A stretch of 64,000 bases of DNA, taken from assembly GCF_013315695.1 (NCBI RefSeq), contig NZ_CP054354.1, one strand, 5' to 3'. Positions 1-46,652 of this stretch are shown one piece after another. The position numbers were made by a program, and so were the translations under genes. Origin of the DNA: Escherichia coli. GTDB taxonomy: Bacteria; Pseudomonadota; Gammaproteobacteria; Enterobacterales; Enterobacteriaceae. The notes beneath the pieces were generated by a model. That model searched no databases. It was not told the DNA's origin and was given only the letters and a program-made list of their open reading frames with translations. How positions within the stretch are numbered: position 1 is the first letter of the stretch; each line of letters begins with the position of its first letter.

Positions 1-1032
1 GTGGCAGGTCTGAAGAATACTTCATATAACGCAGTACACTGGAGTCAGTTAGCACCCGAAGAGCAGATCCGTTTCTGGGAAGACTATGAAGCGGGAAGGG
101 CGACCACTTTCCTGGTTGAACCGGAAAGGAAGCGCACGAAGCGCCGTCGCGGTGAGCACTCCACCAAACCCAAATGCGAAAATCCGTCCTGGTATCGTCC
201 TGAGCGCTATAAAGCGCTGAAAGGGCAGCTCGGGCACGCCTATAACCGTCTGGTGAAAAAGGACCCGGTGACCGGCGAGCAGAGCCTGCGCATGCGCATG
301 TCGCGGCATCCTTTTTATGTACAGAAACGGACGTTCGTCGGTCGCAAATACGCTTTCCGGCCGGAAAAACAACGTCTCCTCGATGCCATCTGGCCGGTTC
401 TGGTCAGCTTCAGTGATGCCGGCACACATACCGTGGGGATGAGCGTCACTCGGCTGGCTGAAGAAATCAGCCCGAAAGACAGCGAGGGACATGTTATTCC
501 GGAACTGGAAGTGACGGTCTCCCGTCTTTCCCGTCTGCTGGCCGAACAGGTGCGCTTTGGTGTGCTGGGTGTGTCAGAGGAAACAATGTGGGACCGTGAA
601 CATCGTCAGCGTCTGCCACGTTACGTCTGGATAACACCGGCAGGCTGGCAGATGCTGGGCGTCGACATGGTAAAACTTCACGAACAGCAGCAGAAACGAC
701 TGCGTGAAAGTGAAATCCGCCAGCAGCTCATTCGGGAAGGTGTTCTGCGTGAGGATGAAGATATCTCCGTTCATGCGGCCAGAAAACGCTGGTATCTGCA
801 GCGCAGCCAGGATGCCCTGAAGAAGCGCCGAGAAAAAGCCGCAGCCAGCAAGCGTGCCAACCGCCTGAAGAAATTACCTGTTGACCAGCAGATTTATGAG
901 ATGGCTGAGTATCTCCGGAAGCGTCTGCCGCCGGATGAAGCCTATTTCTGTTCCGATGACCATCTGAAGCGACTGGCCATCAGGGAGTTGCGTCAGCTTG
1001 AACTGACGCTGGCTGCCCCGCCACCGCACTAG
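1..1032 (+). CDS. Plasmid replication initiation protein (RepZ/RepA1-type); ORF begins with GTG at window position 1, so true start may be here or upstream
   Basis: 343-aa basic protein with Lys/Arg-rich C-terminal half; followed 167 bp downstream by a consensus DnaA box, as at IncFII/IncI origins. Family assignment from memory, not alignment. Confidence 0.65.
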   Translation: MAGLKNTSYNAVHWSQLAPEEQIRFWEDYEAGRATTFLVEPERKRTKRRRGEHSTKPKCENPSWYRPERYKALKGQLGHAYNRLVKKDPVTGEQSLRMRMSRHPFYVQKRTFVGRKYAFRPEKQRLLDAIWPVLVSFSDAGTHTVGMSVTRLAEEISPKDSEGHVIPELEVTVSRLSRLLAEQVRFGVLGVSEETMWDREHRQRLPRYVWITPAGWQMLGVDMVKLHEQQQKRLRESEIRQQLIREGVLREDEDISVHAARKRWYLQRSQDALKKRREKAAASKRANRLKKLPVDQQIYEMAEYLRKRLPPDEAYFCSDDHLKRLAIRELRQLELTLAAPPPH

Positions 1033-1198
1033 ACAGCATCATTCCCTCAGCACTGAATCATCGCCAGCCCCTCCGGGGCTTTCGGCGCAGATTCCGCTCA
1101 GCCCAAAATCCTTAGTAGTCACCTTAAATCCCCTCAGAGGGGCATATCTGCCCATAAAACCACGCATCAGTCATCAGAACGTGGCCACGTTGTTTCAG

Positions 1199-1207
1199 TT
1201 ATCCACA
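1199..1207 (+). promoter_or_regulatory. DnaA box TTATCCACA in the putative origin region downstream of rep
   Basis: Exact 9-mer TTATCCACA at 1199-1207; GC-rich hairpins follow (e.g. cccgccc-gaa-gggcggg near 1530-1546). Confidence 0.45.
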
Positions 1208-1939
1208 TAAATCCGCAAACAAAGAACTTTAAGAAGCTGCAAACCTGAAACAGCAAACCTGCAATATATTCTTAACCCCATCATTTAATCCCCTGCGTTG
1301 CTTCGCCGCAGGGAAAGTCTTTATCTCTGAAACCACTGTGAACAAATACAAAGAGGCCTTCGCTTGCAGCGGCCAAGGCCGCGCCGCTCAGAATCTAAAA
1401 GCACCTCCCACGCTGACGCGCGGGCCCCGAACCTCACCGTTCTGAAACCACAACAAAAAGACATCAGGAATAAAAACACCACACAAACGCAGCACCGTGC
1501 CTACCCCTCATAACTGAAAAGCGAGGCCGCCCCCGCCCGAAGGGCGGGAACAACATCGCTTTTAATTATGAATGTTGTAACTATACTCCGTCATCGCTGT
1601 CAGTCTTCTCGCTGGAAGTATTGAGTACACGCTCGTAAGCGGCCCTCACGGCCCGCTAACGCGGAGATACGCCCCGACTTCGGGTAAACCCTCGTCGGGA
1701 CCACTCCGACCGCGCACAGAAGCTCTGTCATGGCTGAAAACGGGTATGGCTTAGCAGGGCTGGGGATGGGTAAGGTGAAATCTATCAATCAGTACCGGCT
1801 TACGCCGGGCTTCGGCGGTTTCACACCTGTGCTACATGTAACCACCGTATGCCGCCTTACATGCGCTGACGCGCATTATTTGCCTTGTTTCGTCTGAAAG
1901 TAATCACTATGATTAAATATGATTAACAACTAATCGGAT

Positions 1940-2224
1940 ATGCAAATGAAAAACAATACCGCACAGGCAACAAAAGTCATTACCGCGCATGTGCCATTAC
2001 CTATGGCTGATAAAGTCGACCAGATGGCCGCCAGGCTGGAACGCTCCCGGGGCTGGGTTATCAAACAGGCGCTTTCTGCATGGCTTGCCCAGGAGGAGGA
2101 GCGTAATCGCCTGACGCTGGAAGCCCTGGACGATGTGACATCCGGACAGGTTATCGACCATCAGGCTGTACAGGCCTGGGCGGACAGCCTCAGTACTGAC
2201 AATCCGTTACCGGTGCCACGCTGA
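1940..2224 (+). CDS. Type II antitoxin, ribbon-helix-helix (RelB/ParD/CopG-like)
   Basis: 94-aa ORF whose stop overlaps the toxin start (TGATG at 2222-2226); small acidic protein upstream of a RelE/ParE-like toxin. Confidence 0.75.
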   Translation: MQMKNNTAQATKVITAHVPLPMADKVDQMAARLERSRGWVIKQALSAWLAQEEERNRLTLEALDDVTSGQVIDHQAVQAWADSLSTDNPLPVPR

Positions 2225-2499
2225 TGGAACTGAAGTGGACCAGTAAGGCGCTTTCTGATTTGGCGCGGTTATATGATTTTCTGGTGCTGGCCAGTAAACC
2301 TGCGGCCGCCAGAACGGTGCAATCCCTGACACAGGCACCGGTCATTCTGTTAACTCATCCACGTATGGGAGAACAGTTGTTTCAGTTTGAACCCAGGGAG
2401 GTCAGACGGATTTTTGCTGGCGAGTACGAAATCCGTTACGAACTTAATGGCCAGACTATTTATGTATTGCGCCTGTGGCACACACGAGAAAACAGGTAG
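2224..2499 (+). CDS. Type II toxin, RelE/ParE family
   Basis: 91 aa, MELKWT...YEIRYELNGQTIYVLRLWHTRE, typical RelE/ParE length and C-terminal motif; translationally coupled to the upstream antitoxin. Confidence 0.8.
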   Translation: MELKWTSKALSDLARLYDFLVLASKPAAARTVQSLTQAPVILLTHPRMGEQLFQFEPREVRRIFAGEYEIRYELNGQTIYVLRLWHTRENR

Positions 2500-2604
2500 A
2501 TTGTGTGTGGGGACAACTTAACATAGCCTGCAGATATTAATTCTGGAATATTATTATCAGGCCAGATATTTTTCATTCCATTAAATAATCTTGTAGGAGA
2601 TAAA

Positions 2605-2886
2605 ATGAATTACGATGAAATAACAAAAATTACCGCTGAACGTATTAGCGACTACATGACCGAAGCAGTTAATACAGACTCTATAGCCGTTGCGGAAATG
2701 TTTCATAACGCTGCCTGGGGAGTGCGAACATTGTGGTTTGAACTCGTCACAAAAATAGATATAGATATACATAAAAAGAACAGGTATGCGAGTTATGATC
2801 TTAGAAGGAAAATCGAAATGCAGCATGAAGAGTTTCAGAAAATGACAGAGCGCGAGCAAGTGCCTTTATTGAAATCGCCAGAATAA
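2605..2886 (+). CDS. Hypothetical protein (93 aa), low-GC
   Basis: ATG preceded by RBS taggagataaa; AT-rich codon usage unlike the flanking backbone. Confidence 0.5.
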
Positions 2887-3076
2887 TAGAAACAGTACAA
2901 GTACATTGCTGTATTGTGTTTTCCTTGAATATTGAATCGCGGTGCCCATGTACTACGATTCCTTTCGTGTTGTTTATCATTGCACACTTTCCCTGACTGA
3001 GCGTAAACACTGACTACTTTCCCCTCAAACTCCTGGACGGCGAATGCAAAATTGGTCTGTTCCAGCATAGAATATG

Positions 3077-3346
3077 TTACTTTTTCATGACCGAACCCGA
3101 AATTTTGCGCGTCAATAAGAGACGTTGTGTAAACTCAGTCCTTTTATCTGGCAGGTTAACCCCTATCAATCTTAGGATGAAACCACGCCATCCTCTGTTT
3201 GCCTGGTTATTAATTTCATAAAGACGATTGTTTTCCTCTCGTAGTTTTGTCCACTCTAAACAAAGTGTTATATCATCCAGTTCTGTGATGTGTTTCACTT
3301 TTCCATTGACAGTTACAGTGTTTATTCCATTTCCTGTGATCATCAT
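3077..3346 (-). CDS. Hypothetical protein (89 aa), last gene of a minus-strand three-gene unit
   Basis: Start overlaps the stop of the upstream ORF (3343-3346); low GC. Confidence 0.4.
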   Translation of the reverse strand: MMITGNGINTVTVNGKVKHITELDDITLCLEWTKLREENNRLYEINNQANRGWRGFILRLIGVNLPDKRTEFTQRLLLTRKISGSVMKK

Positions 3347-3819
3347 CTTATGCCTTTTTTATCTTCATTTGGGACCGTGCTTTTCTTCGGAGTATCACTA
3401 TTCGTTAACTGCTGTTTATCAATAAAATTCCTGATGTTATCAAGTGCTTCCTTTGTTTTTAGAATGCGCTTGATATCCATTTCATCCCGCCCGGTCATTC
3501 TTTTTCCGGACAAAAGACGTTCAAGAAGCTCCTGTTTCGCATCAGGAGAATCTTTGGCGAGATCCATCAGGTTAAGCAAATCTTCACGATCGAGAGGAAA
3601 GAAGTATTTTACAAAATACTCGAAAAGCGAAAGAAAGTAGTATGCTGTCCATGCAATACCGAAACCGATTCCTATACAGAAATGCAGGTATATAATCAGG
3701 AGAATAGGTAAAATCCATAATACTATAGCTAAAAAAATATATACGGGGTACTGGCATCTGTATGCCCGTTCATGTTTATCCAGGATGAATAAAATCTTCT
3801 CCGCTTCTGAATCACACAT
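3343..3819 (-). CDS. Hypothetical membrane protein (~158 aa from ATG at 3819; ORF track extends to GTG at 3858)
   Basis: Two long hydrophobic segments (YPVYIFLAIVLWILPILLIIYLHFCIGIGFGIAWTAYYFL); GGGAAGAG SD-like sequence before the ATG at 3819. Confidence 0.45.
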   Translation of the reverse strand: MCDSEAEKILFILDKHERAYRCQYPVYIFLAIVLWILPILLIIYLHFCIGIGFGIAWTAYYFLSLFEYFVKYFFPLDREDLLNLMDLAKDSPDAKQELLERLLSGKRMTGRDEMDIKRILKTKEALDNIRNFIDKQQLTNSDTPKKSTVPNEDKKGIR

Positions 3820-3874
3820 AACATTCTCTTCCCATTTTTTCTGATACGTAATGTCCACCTGTTATCAGGAGTGT

Positions 3875-4477
3875 TTATTGCCCAGAAATATTCTCCTGCT
3901 GTGCCTGCATCCTGAGCCACTTTTGTTCTAATGTCGCCAGTCTGCGACCGGCACTCTGTGCTTCAGAGTCTGAGACCTGCCCTTTGGGGTGACCATCCAG
4001 GCCATAACGTGGGACGCCGGCGACAGCTGTCCGCTGCAGATATACGCGGCGGGATGTGATGCAGGACACTGCACAGAGCCATTCGTCCATGGTCAGTTCT
4101 GTCTCCGGGTGTTCTGCCAGAAATGCCGAAATATCATTGTTTATGCCAATTTTCAGGGGAATAAATCCACCACCTTCAGCACGAAGATGAGGAAACAGGG
4201 CCTTTATTTTTTCCACGCACTCGTGAGTATACTCACGGGTCCAGTGGGAGGGACGTGGAAAACGGTGTCTTTTCTTTTTCTTCTTCCTGGCTGGCGCTTC
4301 GGGGATATGTGTTTCGACGGCAGATGAATTTATTCCGGCGGGGGCTGATTCTGCCGTCTGTTCAGTAAATACAGGTGCGATAATATCTGTTTTTTCGGAT
4401 AAGGACGGTGGCGAAAAAGTACGACGTTTTTTCACCACAATGACGGGAGTTTTCCTTTCTTCCTGATTTTTTCCCAT
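3875..4477 (-). CDS. FinO/ProQ-domain RNA-binding protein
   Basis: 200 aa; Lys/Arg-rich N-terminal region (ARKKKKKRHRFPR) and a C-terminal segment (IPLKIGINNDI...ITSRRVYLQRTAVAGVPRYGLDGHPKGQV) that aligns by eye with the FinO C-terminal domain; GAGG RBS. Confidence 0.65.
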   Translation of the reverse strand: MGKNQEERKTPVIVVKKRRTFSPPSLSEKTDIIAPVFTEQTAESAPAGINSSAVETHIPEAPARKKKKKRHRFPRPSHWTREYTHECVEKIKALFPHLRAEGGGFIPLKIGINNDISAFLAEHPETELTMDEWLCAVSCITSRRVYLQRTAVAGVPRYGLDGHPKGQVSDSEAQSAGRRLATLEQKWLRMQAQQENISGQ

Positions 4478-6679: not shown

Positions 6680-6982
6680 TTATCTTTGTTTTACTTCTGC
6701 TATCAATCGTGATACCTCTGTTTTTGATAGTGTTTTAAGTGCTTCTACCGCCGCCCTGACAACATCAGAACGATTCACTCTGCCTTTACCTGAAACCATC
6801 TCAGCCGTTATAAGGGCATCAATGTCTTTTAGGTTTTCTTCAAAAAAAGAAATACTCACTGGTTTTGCTTTGCTTACAACCGATGATTTATCTGATGACT
6901 TTTTGGTATTATCAAGGCCAGCCGTGCCACCGTTAATAAATGCTGCCTCGTCACGAGGTGAAGTGTTTGCTCTATTTCTCAC
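6680..6982 (-). CDS. Partition centromere-binding protein, ParG-like (predicted ribbon-helix-helix C-terminus)
   Basis: 100 aa; GTG start overlapping the ParA stop (GTGA); C-terminal GRVNRSDVVRAAVEALKTL fits a strand-helix-helix pattern; sits immediately after a small ParA. Confidence 0.55.
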   Translation of the reverse strand: MRNRANTSPRDEAAFINGGTAGLDNTKKSSDKSSVVSKAKPVSISFFEENLKDIDALITAEMVSGKGRVNRSDVVRAAVEALKTLSKTEVSRLIAEVKQR

Positions 6983-7605
6983 AGAATAACCTCTTTCACT
7001 AACGCTTCGATTTCTTGCTGGGCTTTATCATTTTGCGTTTCAAAAATTGTCATTGATTCGGCCCAAGCATCTCGATGTGCTTTACGATCACATACCCGGG
7101 AGTTTGCCAGATGCATTTCAGGGTAATCCTTAAGTACTTCAGCTGCCTCATTGGCTTCATTAACAAACATATTTGTGGGCGTCATGTTTAAAACGAGATA
7201 TCCCCGAACATCCTCATTAAAATCTTTTGCTGCTGTAAAAACGGAGCATGTATGAGGCACAACATCCAGGTCCATCTGAGATGGGCGCAAAGGAGAAATG
7301 AATACATCTGCGGCCATCAATCCACTACGCATTTCTGCGCTATCACGGCCAGCACAGTCTGCAATAACAAAATCATAGGATTTTTCGTGTTCCTTTAACA
7401 TGGCTTTGATGTTACCTGTCGCGCCTGTAACCGGAATATGAGGGAGATCTTCAGGGCGATTGTTGTACCAGGTTAATACTGATTTCTGGTCATCTGCGTC
7501 GACAATAATCACTCTATTGCCTAGTGACATCAGATACGCAGCTATAGATACCGCCAGTGTACTTTTACCTACCCCACCCTTTTGACTACCTAATACTATT
7601 ATCAT
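6979..7605 (-). CDS. Partition ATPase, small ParA (type Ib, ParF-like)
   Basis: 208 aa with deviant Walker A KGGVGKST near the N-terminus; GAGG RBS; flanked by iteron arrays. Confidence 0.9.
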   Translation of the reverse strand: MIIVLGSQKGGVGKSTLAVSIAAYLMSLGNRVIIVDADDQKSVLTWYNNRPEDLPHIPVTGATGNIKAMLKEHEKSYDFVIADCAGRDSAEMRSGLMAADVFISPLRPSQMDLDVVPHTCSVFTAAKDFNEDVRGYLVLNMTPTNMFVNEANEAAEVLKDYPEMHLANSRVCDRKAHRDAWAESMTIFETQNDKAQQEIEALVKEVIL

Positions 7606-7816: not shown

Positions 7817-9088
7817 TCATAACTGGGCTACTGGCAAATCTGTCCATCTGGTGGTATACGCAGGAGAAAGCATTTCCCGTTTCATTTGCCATTCAGGGGC
7901 GGTTCCTCGCCCCGCAAACCACACTTTCCCTTTTCCCGACTGGTTCAGTTCATCGAGTGTTTTCATTAACTTTTCACTGTTTTTACGGGGCTGGATTTCA
8001 TCAAATAATCCCGGCTGCGCTATACCCGATGGTGTGAAATCAGCCAGCATGACACCTGCCTTCATATAGCGGTACCCTTCACGCCAGACATGGTTTAACG
8101 CTCTGCATGCTGCGGCAATAATGTCCCGGCTGTCCTGTGTGGGCAATGGAAGCTTTTCCACAGCGGCATTGCTGTAACAGGGTTCTTTTACTGCAAAGGG
8201 GGATGTCCGTACAAATGTCGTCACCTGCCGGCAATACTGACGCTCCCCACGTAGTTTCTCTGCGGCCCGCTCTGCATACTGAACAACAGCCTGGTGCATG
8301 GCATCTTTGTCTGTGATTCGTTCACCAAAACTGCGACTACAGACAATCTGCTGTTTTGCCGGCGGTGCTTCTTCCAGAGATATGCAGGACTCGCCGTTGA
8401 GTTCGCGTACCGTACGCTCAAGAATGACGCTGAAGTTTTTCCGGATGAATGCCGTGTTAGCCTGCGCCAGCTGCAGTGCTGTGTTAATACCCAGCGCATT
8501 CAGCTTTTCCGTCAGTCTGCGTCCTACTCCCCAGACCTCACCAACTGGCTGCAACCCCAGTAGCTTCAAGATCCGATTACGGTTTTCTGCCGTCAGCGCG
8601 ACCACACCGGAAAACTGTGGCCATTGCTTTGTTGCCCACTGGGCACTTTTAGCCAGCGTTTTTGTAGGCGCAATGCCCACCCCCATGGTGAGTCCTGTCC
8701 AGCTCTTTACCTGTTCCCTGAGCTGATGACCAAAAATCTCCGGAGAGATGCAATGATTTATCCCCCGCAAATCAATGAACATTTCATCAATTGAGTAGGG
8801 CTCAACTGCGGGAGAAAGCGACTCCAGAACAGCCATAACCCGTTGGCTCATGCTGTGGTACAGCGCATAATTGCTGGAAAATACATGTATTTTCTTCTCC
8901 AGGCGCATTTGTCTCACCTGAAACCAGGGCTGCCCCATTCTGATGCCAAGGGCTTTTGCCTCCGGGCTGCGCGCGATCACACAGCCATCGTTATTGCTGA
9001 GTACGATGACCGGTTCGTTGCGAAGGTCCGGGCGGAAAACTTTTTCACATGAGGCGTAGAAACTGTTGATATCAGCCAGTGCAAACAT
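7817..9088 (-). CDS. impB: Error-prone Y-family DNA polymerase subunit, UmuC homologue (ImpB)
   Basis: 423 aa, N-terminus MFALADINSFYASCE...VIVLSNNDGCVIARS typical of UmuC/MucB/ImpB; start overlaps impA stop. Confidence 0.95.
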   Translation of the reverse strand: MFALADINSFYASCEKVFRPDLRNEPVIVLSNNDGCVIARSPEAKALGIRMGQPWFQVRQMRLEKKIHVFSSNYALYHSMSQRVMAVLESLSPAVEPYSIDEMFIDLRGINHCISPEIFGHQLREQVKSWTGLTMGVGIAPTKTLAKSAQWATKQWPQFSGVVALTAENRNRILKLLGLQPVGEVWGVGRRLTEKLNALGINTALQLAQANTAFIRKNFSVILERTVRELNGESCISLEEAPPAKQQIVCSRSFGERITDKDAMHQAVVQYAERAAEKLRGERQYCRQVTTFVRTSPFAVKEPCYSNAAVEKLPLPTQDSRDIIAAACRALNHVWREGYRYMKAGVMLADFTPSGIAQPGLFDEIQPRKNSEKLMKTLDELNQSGKGKVWFAGRGTAPEWQMKREMLSPAYTTRWTDLPVAQL

Positions 9089-9810: not shown

Positions 9811-10164
9811 TATTCTAATAACTGAATCCGCACACAGTCAAATGTCATTGTTGTGACTAAAAAACGCTCAATTCTCTGAGTGTGTGGCTGTATGCCTGCT
9901 GTGGGCTGCTGTGTCCAGCTTATCCACAGCATTTTGTGCACGGTTCTGTGGACAAAATACCTGGTTACCCAGGCCGTGCCGGCACGTTAACCGGGCTGCA
10001 TCCGATGCAAGTGTGTCGCTGTCGCCGGCCTCCTCACCCGGTCACGTTTCGTCGTTCCTCCTCCACGCGCTGCGGCTTCGGGGCCGCACCTGCATTCGTA
10101 TGCGGTCGCCCGGTAACAGGTGCGGCACGGCCTGATGGAGGCCGCATGTGAGAGGAGAATTCCC

Positions 10165-11091
10165 ATGCCAAACTGGTGCTCGAATCGTATGTATTTTTCT
10201 GGTGAACCGGCACAGATCGCTGAGATTAAACGACTGGCCAGCGGTGCAGTCACACCGCTTTATCGCCGCGCTACAAATGAAGGTATTCAGCTGTTTCTGG
10301 CCGGAAGTGCCGGACTTCTGCAGATCACTGAAAATATCCGCTCTGAGCAGTGCCCCGGAGTGACGGCTGCCGGACGTGGTGCTGTATCACCGGAAAATAT
10401 CGCGTTCACCCGCTGGCTGACACACCTGCAGAACGGTGTACTGCTGGATGAGCAAAACTGCCTGATGCTGCATGAACTCTGGCTGCAGAGCGGTACTGGA
10501 CAGCGTCGCTGGGAAGAGTTACCGGATGATGTCAGGGAAACTATCACTGTGCATTTCACCGCAAAAAGAGGTGACTGGTGTGACATCTGGGGTAACGAGG
10601 ATGTATCGGTGTGGTGGAACCGTCTGTGTGACAACGTACTGCCGGAAAAAACCATGCCGTTTGACCTGCTGACGGTTTTGCCGACCCGCCTGGATATTGA
10701 AGTGAATGGCTTTAACGGCGGTGTTCTGAACGGTGTTCCTTCTGCATATCACTGGTATACAGAACGGTATGGCGTGAAGTGGCCTTGTGGGTATGACCTG
10801 AATATCAGCAGTCAGGGGGAAAACTTCATTCAGGTAGATTTCGACACGCCGTGGTGTCAGCCGGAAAGCGACGTTGTTGCAGAATTAAGCCGCCGTTTCG
10901 GCTGCACGCTGGAGCACTGGTACGCCGAACAGGGCTGCAATTTCTGTGGCTGGCAGTTGTATGAGCGCGGAGAGCTCGTTGATGTGCTGTGGGGGGAACT
11001 GGAATGGTCTTCCCCGACAGATGATGATGAGCTGCCGGAAGTCACCGGACCTGCGTGGATAATCGACAATGTGGCGCATTATGGCGGATGA
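10165..11091 (+). CDS. Conserved hypothetical leading-region protein (~308 aa)
   Basis: ATG at 10165 follows GAGGAG (10152-10157); ORF track start 10120 has no RBS; Trp/Cys-rich. Confidence 0.6.
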   Translation: MPNWCSNRMYFSGEPAQIAEIKRLASGAVTPLYRRATNEGIQLFLAGSAGLLQITENIRSEQCPGVTAAGRGAVSPENIAFTRWLTHLQNGVLLDEQNCLMLHELWLQSGTGQRRWEELPDDVRETITVHFTAKRGDWCDIWGNEDVSVWWNRLCDNVLPEKTMPFDLLTVLPTRLDIEVNGFNGGVLNGVPSAYHWYTERYGVKWPCGYDLNISSQGENFIQVDFDTPWCQPESDVVAELSRRFGCTLEHWYAEQGCNFCGWQLYERGELVDVLWGELEWSSPTDDDELPEVTGPAWIIDNVAHYGG

Positions 11092-45450: not shown

Positions 45451-46652
45451 CTTACGCTCCCCTGGCTCATGGCCTGTGACAGTTCGCCAAGGCGCTGTCC
45501 GTAATACTGCCGTGCGGCCAGCGCAAGTTGCTGCCCGGCGATAACGTTACCCTGACGAATCTGCTCTTTCAGATCGTTCATCTGCCAGTTCAGCAGGGCG
45601 GTGGTGCGCAGCAGCTCACGGAGAAGGTTATCGCCTTCCATGCCCTGCAGATCCTGCTGCCAGTCGGTGTTGGCATACCGTCTGCCGGCTTCAAAGGCCT
45701 CAAACTCCCGCTGGCTCATGTGGCCACGGGTGCGGGCTTCTGATGATGCGGTCCGGTCAAAATATGCCGCAGCTGACGGTGACTGCAGGGCTTCAGTCAG
45801 TGCCCCACGGGTGGCTTCATTAGGGGTACTGTCAGCAATCAGTGACAGCTGCGGATGAGAGGCGGCATCGATGATGCCGTTGTATTCATTCTGCAGGCCC
45901 ACATACGTGCGCCCGGTCTGTGTGCCCACTTCTCCTTTCCCCGGGGCACGACCCGCTGACGGTCTGGCGGTGTTTTTCATATAAGCCGTCGCGGCATCAA
46001 TCTGTTTCTGATCCCAGGTGAGAGCGGCCGGGGTATCTGCTGTGCCTGCGCCCTGATAGAGCGATCGTACCTGGCTGTCTCCGCCCGGCAGATCGCCCAC
46101 GGCAGGGCAGACATCAGTTCCGCCAAAGCGGGCATACTCCGCTTCCGTGCAGTAACCGGCGTGGATGCCGGCACTGTCATACGCCTCGCGGACCGGGGAG
46201 TCCGCAGCCCGGGAGAGACGTTCCCGGATGGGTTTACTGCTGACCCCTCCCCCCTGACTCAGACGTGCCGCTGCAGACGCTGCTGCCCGGCGGCTTTCTG
46301 CTGCAATGCCGGACGCGGATTCACTGCAGATGGAGTCCGGCACGCTGAAGCTTTTCCTGGCCTCCTCGAGGCGGTGTGTTTCATTACTGAATATCATCTG
46401 CTGACGGGTGGCCTGCCCGTCCTGGGCAATGACGGTGGCCAGTTTTTCTGAGTTCTGGGTGATGGCTGTGCCGGTGGCCGTCTGCATACGGACCATTTCC
46501 TCCATGATGCCCTGTATGGTGGCCAGCTCCGGCATGATCTGTCGGGTGACGGGCTGACTGGACACAACATTCACAGAGTAGGCATGGGTGGCAGGGATAA
46601 CCGCACAGCCTACAAGGAGTGCAAGCAGTGTGGTTGCAGATTGTCTTTGCAT
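45447..46652 (-). CDS. traW: TraW, lipoprotein
   Basis: ATG at 46652 with GGAG RBS gives MQRQSATTLLALLVGCAVIP (lipobox LVGC); ORF track starts further upstream at 46757. Confidence 0.65.
   Translation of the reverse strand: MQRQSATTLLALLVGCAVIPATHAYSVNVVSSQPVTRQIMPELATIQGIMEEMVRMQTATGTAITQNSEKLATVIAQDGQATRQQMIFSNETHRLEEARKSFSVPDSICSESASGIAAESRRAAASAAARLSQGGGVSSKPIRERLSRAADSPVREAYDSAGIHAGYCTEAEYARFGGTDVCPAVGDLPGGDSQVRSLYQGAGTADTPAALTWDQKQIDAATAYMKNTARPSAGRAPGKGEVGTQTGRTYVGLQNEYNGIIDAASHPQLSLIADSTPNEATRGALTEALQSPSAAAYFDRTASSEARTRGHMSQREFEAFEAGRRYANTDWQQDLQGMEGDNLLRELLRTTALLNWQMNDLKEQIRQGNVIAGQQLALAARQYYGQRLGELSQAMSQGSVR

Follow-up and report, generated by a model that had tools for sequence, protein, structure and literature searches.

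The window analysed here is a 64,000-nucleotide stretch of Escherichia coli DNA that opens with an initiator gene, repZ/repA. This gene is separated from a toxin-antitoxin operon (1940-2499) by a single intergenic gap of 907 bp, at 1033-1939 (Table 1). The product of repZ gives a weak match to the Pfam family IncFII_repA and is called plasmid replication initiator RepA in NZ_AP025678.1, an identical RefSeq record of the E. coli plasmid pRb23_1, which is typed as IncI1/B/O, MOBP and MPF_I. No CDS is annotated in that record between 1-1032 and 1940-2224. The stretch singled out in the original prediction, 1033-1900, takes up nearly all of this gap. The far right end of the gap, with its promoter-like site, is part of the neighbouring toxin-antitoxin operon and lies outside the replication region.

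A DnaA box, an AT-rich stretch, a Ter site and a motif resembling the primer starts of phages G4 and alpha3 follow one another along the gap in the order expected of an IncFII/IncI origin and its single-strand initiation signal (ssi). This is in line with the original prediction, which had proposed that such plasmids carry the origin and single-strand initiation signals here and had noted the DnaA box, found to be perfect. The Ter site was missing from that prediction and the ssi was left unplaced; both are mapped in the present analysis. On the other hand, the description of the region as GC-rich has to be dropped, since its GC content of 52.6% is below that of the whole window (53.6%); repZ has 56.1%. 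The composition is patchy within the gap, with 41% GC in 1199-1365 and 56-58% on both flanks, and the + strand of 1033-1600 strongly favours C over G (182 C, 105 G).

Table 1. Positions of genes, replication elements and hairpins at the left end of the window
Feature	Position	Strand	Remarks
repZ/repA initiator gene	1-1032	+	343-aa ORF, GTG start
CIS spacer, repZ to origin	1033-1198	+	putative role, after the R1/ColIb-P9 model
Palindrome AACGTGGCCACGTT	1178-1191		perfect, 14 bp; directly left of the DnaA box
DnaA box TTATCCACA	1199-1207	+	exact match; rep-proximal edge of the origin
Predicted RepZ-binding part of the origin	1208-1315		GCAAAC-type repeats and a dyad
AT-rich distal origin	1316-1365		aligns with the R100 AT-rich segment downstream of the DnaA box
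Hairpin CCCACGC-TGAC-GCGCGGG	1407-1424	- (terminator-like)	right edge of the origin
Place homologous to terRL of R1/R100	1438-1460	-	5/12 core positions match; no Ter
Long hairpin abutting Ter	1508-1571	- (terminator-like)	helices 1508-1510/1569-1571, 1517-1523/1557-1563, 1532-1538/1542-1548
Ter site ATTATGAATGTTGTAACTATACT, candidate Tus-binding	1565-1587	+	terRR equivalent of R1, by sequence match
Near-invariant hairpin cluster between Ter and primer start	1634-1708	-	helices 1634-1661, 1662-1708
G-site start motif CCTGCTAAGCC, predicted primase-dependent ssi	1758-1748	-	11/11 match to phage alpha3 oric
Hairpin trio on the template strand, 5' of the start	1795-1808, 1813-1847, 1861-1876	-	
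Promoter-like site and tandem TATGATTAA repeats	1894-1939	+	upstream of the antitoxin gene
Ribbon-helix-helix antitoxin gene	1940-2224		Pfam RHH_1 match
ParE/RelE toxin gene	2224-2499		Pfam ParE_toxin match

Coding capacity of the gap and organization of the origin

Over the stretch homologous to the gap, a 128-aa 'replication-associated protein RepA4' or else a hypothetical protein has been annotated in some IncFII records, and R100 has an intact 128-codon frame there (L007:45733-46119). The interval could accordingly be, or recently have been, protein-coding, either as a RepA4-like gene or as a decayed ORF, but we consider this extremely improbable. The repA4 frame is broken in the window, and in pEntH10407 it is broken into two truncated ORFs, while among 15 homologues the open frames vary in position, strand and length. 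When the homologues are aligned, the variable sites fall about equally into the three codon phases (49/45/43, 37/41/39 and 34/34/34), indels are mostly of 1-2 nt, and conservation tracks the base-paired stems rather than codons. Neither the intact conserved frame nor the codon-like substitutions expected of a RepA4 coding gene were found, and a search of Pfam and NCBIfam with the small candidate ORFs (55, 62, 57, 66 and 128 aa) returned no match. The view that ~900 bp are devoid of a supported ORF therefore stands, and the signature of a degraded coding sequence, which the original prediction had named as the contrary case, was not detected. In pEC958, the repA4 region holds ter sites, tolerates no transposon insertions and is needed for maintenance (PMC4398462), a requirement that agrees with a cis-acting role.

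Origins of the IncFII/IncI complex are located ~150-180 bp past the initiator gene, with CIS in between, and the same arrangement is observed here: the DnaA box lies 167 bp past the repZ stop, and in R100 the same box lies 176 bp past the repA1 stop. The CIS spacer has a GC skew of -0.28 to -0.33, and its C-rich, G-poor + strand resembles a Rho-utilisation site. It also carries a GC hairpin, with the stem AGCCCC/GGGGCT at 1066-1080 extending to 1055-1094. To quantify folding, five segments of the gap were folded as single-stranded DNA and compared with dinucleotide-preserving shuffles; the segment 1033-1170 gave z values of -3.3 on the + strand and -2.8 on the - strand. The hairpin following repZ is kept in relatives from Citrobacter, Raoultella and Enterobacter, whose RepZ proteins are 61-70% identical to that of the window. 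Since a T-run follows the hairpin in these relatives, it is probably the terminator of the repZ transcript.

The origin core would extend over about 1199-1365. The core of the palindrome beside it, GTGGCCAC, recurs in two relatives from Enterobacter, L014 and L015. The DnaA box is kept in ColIb-P9, L009, L012 and L013, and diverged in L014 and L015. Within the predicted RepZ-binding part, tandem 14-mers with GCAAAC-type repeats occupy 1233-1260, and a dyad CCCTGCG...CGCAGGG is located at 1291-1313, with paired changes of its two arms in L014 and L015 (CTCTG...CAGAG). Both the dyad and the CCGCAAAC/CCGGAAAC motifs of this part are retained by relatives. The AT-rich distal part is a probable unwinding region; in R100, oriR is placed in the corresponding AT-rich stretch by analogy. 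The AT-rich stretch is kept in relatives, three of which (L012, L014 and L015) have a perfect inverted DnaA box, TGTGGATAA, where the window has a degenerate one, TGTGAACAA, at 1336-1344. One consensus DnaA box, a predicted initiator-binding part and an AT-rich end thus succeed each other in the order found in IncFII/IncI origins. In the case of R1, the minimal oriR comprises 188 bp, replication is unidirectional, and DnaA bound to its box only with RepA immediately downstream (PMC5883639). By analogy with R1, RepZ may bind the origin core and open its AT-rich end, and the origin may fire in a cis-dependent manner.

At the right edge of the origin, the segment 1290-1435 folds no better than the shuffles (z values of -0.9 and -1.3); two hairpins located there are conserved nonetheless. 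The stem at 1407-1424 is kept by compensatory changes in L012 (CCCGTCAC/GTGACGGG), L013 and R100.

Ter site and conserved hairpins

The candidate Ter site has its G6 at 1570 and exact core positions 8-19 (ATGTTGTAACTA) at 1572-1583. Over the 64 kb, the pattern GNRNGTTGTAACKA is matched exactly only once, at 1570-1583 (+ strand), against ~0.03 matches expected by chance according to our own estimate. A + strand Ter with G6 is present in 15/15 homologous loci, so that, besides the match of the core and of G6, a terRR-like position and orientation beside the origin are conserved. The polarity of the site was calibrated on TerB of E. coli MG1655, where the + strand carries both the pattern and, shortly downstream of it, tus. 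TerB stops the clockwise fork, that is, the fork moving to higher coordinates there, and it follows that a fork moving 5'->3' along the strand reading ...GTTGTAAC... is stopped. The orientation of the plasmid site is the one predicted to arrest left-to-right forks, i.e. those arriving via repZ and the origin. Located between the origin and the G site, it also faces, in the blocking orientation, a helicase travelling from the former to the latter. By analogy with the experiments on R1, R100 and ColIb-P9, Tus would bind at 1565-1587 and cause polar fork arrest.

A scan of the window allowing 2 mismatches found no left Ter. Among the 15 homologous loci, the left (-) Ter is present only in R100, L012, L013, L020 and L021; it is missing from the window, ColIb-P9, R64 and seven further loci. 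R100 has two inverted perfect Ter sites, with the - strand one at L007:45777-45790, whereas the window has the right one only. In R1, the minimal oriR lies on one side of the ter sites and the leading-strand start on the other, and the clockwise fork, having copied the plasmid, comes to its final stop at terRR (PMC10331603). The missing left Ter in IncI-type plasmids bears on how unidirectional replication is enforced.

Several strong hairpins had been announced for the region, and four of the five segments examined do fold better than shuffled sequence. Besides the spacer, these are 1500-1600, with z values of -3.6 on the + strand and -4.9 on the - strand, 1600-1740, with -3.5 on the - strand versus -1.3 on the + strand, and 1785-1885, with -2.5 on the - strand. 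Compensatory changes affect four pairs of the long hairpin abutting Ter, and are also present in the cluster 1634-1708, where GGG/CCC is replaced by GGC/GCC and CCCGAC/GTCGGG by CCCGTC/GACGGG.

Formal covariation analysis covered 1508-1708, with 41 curated pairs in seven helices (1508-1571 and 1634-1708) and an alignment of 15 sequences. Across these homologues, the curated pairs are paired at 95.7%, and six pairs, amounting to 26 cells, are changed on both sides. The covariation score reaches 0.113, compared with 0.033 for shuffles, none of which attained 0.113 in 500 trials, and at most 0.031 for slid controls. The non-Watson-Crick cells of the seven helices are distributed very unequally, 18/26 being G.T on the - strand and 0/26 G.T on the + strand; they perhaps reflect four or five separate changes. 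Because of this G.T bias and of the stabler fold of the - strand, the data point to the minus strand, which is the leading-strand template, as the folding strand. The cluster 1634-1708 probably folds as single-stranded DNA on this strand.

For the hairpins at 1795-1876, the evidence consists of the fold z value and of stems recognized by eye or by per-sequence folding. The first of them, CCGGC-TTAC-GCCGG at 1795-1808, shows a compensatory change in L018 (GCGGC/GCCGC). The terminal one, ATGCGC-TGAC-GCGCAT at 1861-1876, marks the right end of the block common to IncFII plasmids and occurs in 15/15 homologues, with the variant stems ATGCCGC/GCGGCAT and ATGCGCC/GGCGCAT. It is conceivable, though unlikely, that the two best-conserved hairpin elements, 1634-1708 and 1508-1571, form a separate, undescribed single-strand device in addition to the primase signal, which would help the first helicase or priming past Tus-Ter, or would stand in for the left Ter by keeping IncI replication unidirectional.

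Predicted primer start and probable direction of replication

The minus strand reads CCCTGCTAAGCCA at 1759-1747 and here contains the predicted start motif of a G site. Compared with G4 at its annotated primer start, CTGCTAAGCCA agrees at 10/11 positions, with one base different, and the G4 variant, CTGCAAAGCCA, is found in several homologous plasmids. The annotated primer start of G4 is at the CTG of ...CCCTACTGCAAAGCCA..., and alpha3 has ...CCCTCCTGCTAAGCCC... at the aligned place. In the window, CTG is the complement of 1757-1755, and CAGG (complement of CTG) is invariant in 15/15 homologues. With priming taken to begin at the T of CTG, following G4, position 1756 is predicted to be the first base of the primer, and synthesis would proceed rightward, to higher coordinates. 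According to our own estimate, an exact 11-mer has a chance expectation of ~0.03 in this small search space, and the start motif alone is only modestly significant.

The complementary-strand origins of G4 and alpha3 have in common with the plasmid the motif CTGC(A/T)AAGCC at the primer start and, on the template strand, several hairpins located 5' to it. The plasmid differs from them in the arrangement of its hairpins: it is without a hairpin directly at the start, the nearest being ~40 nt away, and it adds a conserved hairpin cluster 3' of the start. Similarity to the phages does not extend beyond the start motif, and only local alignment revealed it; a blastn search of 1500-1900 against 50,697 phage records gave one chance match only. 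With the ssiA-containing RepFIA region of plasmid F, no meaningful similarity was observed.

The predicted start at 1756 lies right of Ter, and the DnaA box is 557 bp away (551 bp in R100). The R100 equivalent of the start, L007:46097, is contained in the repA4 frame (45733-46119), whose end is 22 bp further on. This location fits the description of R1, where the start is past the ter sites (PMC10331603). A G site is expected to combine CTG with a phage-like start, a position on the leading-strand template past the ter sites and a conserved single-strand structure, and these features are found together here. With the R1 numbering that we take to apply, namely the DnaA box at 1427-1435 and oriR at 1406-1593, the start would be ~385 bp beyond oriR; Masai and Arai (1989) reportedly placed the leading-strand start ~380-400 bp beyond oriR. 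The homologous segment of ColIb-P9 is said to have acted in DNA priming when assayed in phage M13 (Tanaka et al. 1991). The ColIb-P9 and R100 segments were reportedly primed by primase and SSB alone, in a rifampicin-resistant and dnaB-independent manner, with rescue of M13 (Tanaka et al. 1991, 1994), and two separated conserved domains are said to be needed in the R100 G site (Tanaka et al. 1994). By analogy with the experiments on R1, R100 and ColIb-P9, priming would take place at this signal.

Other sequences were discarded. The 9-mer CGGAGATAC, common to both phage origins, is carried by the strand opposite to that of the start motif, and its occurrence was taken as chance (~0.4 expected, own estimate). 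The first start candidate was TACTG on the - strand (1794-1790), beside the hairpin 1795-1808; L012 and L015 have not kept its CTG. The CTGs of the + strand at 1716 and 1733, implying leftward synthesis, are not conserved; the GC skew and the G.T bias favour the - strand, and the rightward (clockwise) fork described for R1 also argues against them (PMC10331603).

The restriction of G.T(U) pairs to the - strand would also be compatible with hairpins acting as RNA, in the form of one or more small structured transcripts running leftward from the minus strand and regulating replication or the neighbouring operon. Indeed, this strand has terminator-like hairpins at 1424-1407 and 1554-1526 and a weak promoter-like site at 1594-1565. 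The promoter match, however, is 9/12 and overlaps Ter, and the Rfam 15 covariance models gave no match in 1-4000 of the window even at E <= 1. Moreover, a minus-strand bias is equally expected of a single-stranded leading-strand DNA template, the start motif matches phage DNA priming origins, and the ColIb-P9 segment reportedly has priming activity in M13. An RNA function of the hairpins appears very unlikely, and a folded DNA template is the preferred reading.

The + strand has a positive GC skew over 4-64 kb. Third codon positions show the same sign whichever strand the gene is on (+0.14 for + genes and +0.078 for - genes), so that the + strand looks like the leading strand. The skew pattern fits that expected of a plasmid copied by one rightward fork, and the strand-specific history of conjugative transfer may contribute to it.

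Related plasmids and proposed mode of replication

Alignment with ColIb-P9 and R100, which the original prediction had suggested as a check, places the region among its known counterparts. In ColIb-P9/R64 (IncI1) the parts are arranged as in the window, and the nucleotide sequences are 95.5% identical over 841 nt; no difference is found in the DnaA box, the repeats, Ter or the start motif. Point differences are located around 1584-1630 and 1820-1880. The stem of the terminal hairpin has 6 bp in the window versus 7 bp in ColIb-P9, where ColIb-P9 has its second AAGCGG motif the window has AAACGG, and the promoter of the flanking toxin-antitoxin operon is unlike that of ColIb-P9/R64.

R1/R100 (IncFII) have the same layout, with rep, a spacer, the DnaA box ~170 bp past the stop, an AT-rich end, Ter and the leading-strand start. 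The repA4 region of R100 aligns with 1505-1876 of the window, at 90.5% identity over 1505-1873, whereas the spacer and the origin core are barely alignable, and RepZ and R100 RepA1 share 24% amino-acid identity only. Since the block is so similar (~90%) between replicons with such different initiators, it has been exchanged between otherwise distant replicons. The borders are mosaic, BLAST matches in other plasmids having their left end at 1401 or 1505 and their right end at 1876 or 1900. The block, which comprises ~370 bp with Ter and the priming signal, is carried by >5000 plasmid records and by 4152/5426 complete E. coli genomes, in which 7311/7367 places are on plasmids.

The sharpness of these borders on both sides, the contrast between block and initiator identities and the several terminator-like hairpins could suggest that, beyond the origin core and Ter, the hairpins are mere transcription insulators and that the 90% identity of IncI and IncFII is a by-product of recent recombination. 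We regard this as highly improbable, given that at 73-80% block identity the stems, Ter and the CAGG start persist with compensatory changes. In addition, the start motif matches two phage primase origins, and the start lies where published work puts the start region of the leading strand in R1 (PMC10331603).

Collectively, the elements observed, their order, orientation and conservation, the compensatory changes, the absence of a coding signal and a strand composition fitting rightward replication indicate that 1033-1939 is very probably the cis-acting replication region of an IncI-complex (IncI1/B/O) plasmid, laid out as in ColIb-P9/R64 and R1/R100. In the proposed mode of replication, RepZ would be made from 1-1032, its transcript ending in the C-rich CIS spacer. 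RepZ in cis and host DnaA at its box would then act on the origin core and open the AT-rich end. A helicase loaded at the origin would expose the minus strand further right, and host primase alone would read the G4-type ssi and start the leading strand at ~1756, toward higher coordinates. A single fork would copy the whole plasmid and come back via repZ and the origin. There, Tus on Ter would halt it ~170 bp short of the leading-strand start, before the fork displaces its own starting end, which would prevent over-replication and rolling-circle runaway. The plasmid Ter is identical to the chromosomal TerB in core positions 8-19 and G6. The chromosomal fork trap, however, uses two opposed groups of sites, whereas the plasmid has a single site adjoining the origin, which in this model would stop one unidirectional fork after a full round.

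The region is a textbook replication control region, already known, and our results leave its current understanding unchanged; the gain is a precise coordinate map. The value of this map lies mainly in annotation, as public records leave the block blank or present it as a hypothetical or 'RepA4' protein. With the DnaA box, Ter and its polarity, the primer start and the hairpins in place, the block can be annotated as cis-acting DNA, and the map would likewise show in which direction IncI and IncFII resistance plasmids are replicated.

Strand composition and short motifs of the replication region

The plus strand of the replication region carries a large excess of C over G between 1033 and 1600 (182 C, 105 G), with the skew reaching -0.33; elsewhere on the plasmid the skew has the opposite, positive sign. 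An RNA reading through from the initiator gene repZ would resemble a Rho-utilisation site in being rich in C and poor in G. Two conserved hairpins resemble intrinsic terminators oriented for leftward transcription. These elements could shield the origin from transcripts arriving from the right or, alternatively, they could act as single-strand DNA signals.

Two short motifs were also observed in this region. A perfect 14-bp palindrome, AACGTGGCCACGTT (1178-1191), lies beside the DnaA box, and its core GTGGCCAC was found again in both Enterobacter relatives. The 9-mer CGGAGATAC at 1662-1670 is invariant in 15/15 plasmid sequences and is also kept in the priming origins of phages G4 (L008, 3946-3954) and alpha3 (L026, G-H intergenic region). 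In the plasmid it is located on the strand opposite to the primase start motif. Its presence in both plasmid and phage origins is probably due to chance (about 0.4 expected).

Neighbouring genes and additional DnaA boxes

Downstream, at 1894-1939, a tandem TATGATTAA (1908-1916 and 1918-1926) overlaps a promoter-like site preceding an RHH/ParE toxin-antitoxin pair; the two copies are probably the operator of the antitoxin. The ProQ/FinO-family, ParA-like and ImpB-like genes are the usual backbone of the IncI complex.

Hairpins and backbone genes around the replication region
Feature	Position	Strand	Remark
Conserved hairpin	1424-1407	-	intrinsic terminator-like for leftward transcription
Conserved hairpin	1554-1526	-	intrinsic terminator-like for leftward transcription
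ProQ/FinO-family RNA-binding protein gene	3875-4477	-	2 kb from origin
ParA-like gene	6979-7605		after ProQ/FinO-family gene
ImpB-like gene	7817-9088		after ProQ/FinO-family gene

With no more than one mismatch allowed, the window contains 20 DnaA boxes against 11.8 expected, an enrichment reached by 0 of 100 shuffles. A second perfect box (9920-9928, +) is followed 19 bp away by an inverted one-mismatch box (9947-9955, -), and a DUF1281 gene (10120-11091) lies downstream of the pair at a distance of about 170 bp.

The Ter-plus-priming block

The edges of BLAST matches delimit the Ter-plus-priming block by sharp mosaic borders at 1401, 1505, 1876 and 1900. Its IncI and IncFII versions share 90% identity, against only 24% for the initiators of these plasmids, and the block therefore has the appearance of a cassette that can be exchanged.

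Complete with both Ter sites, the cassette is also present in an IncN-R plasmid (L020, NZ_AP024754.1, 1726-2151) and an IncR plasmid (L021, NZ_CP114570.1, 1533-1961), neither of which has an initiator gene annotated beside it. The cassette was also located at 56 chromosomal positions in E. coli genomes. All these copies may represent replicon remnants or integrated plasmids.

The right Ter is kept in all 15 aligned loci. The left Ter of R1/R100, terRL, is absent at 1438-1460 in the window, as well as in ColIb-P9, R64 and seven other relatives; a terRL-type site was found in R100 (L007:45777-45790), L012, L013, L020 and L021. Since the left Ter is missing, a leftward fork would meet no Tus block in IncI-type plasmids.
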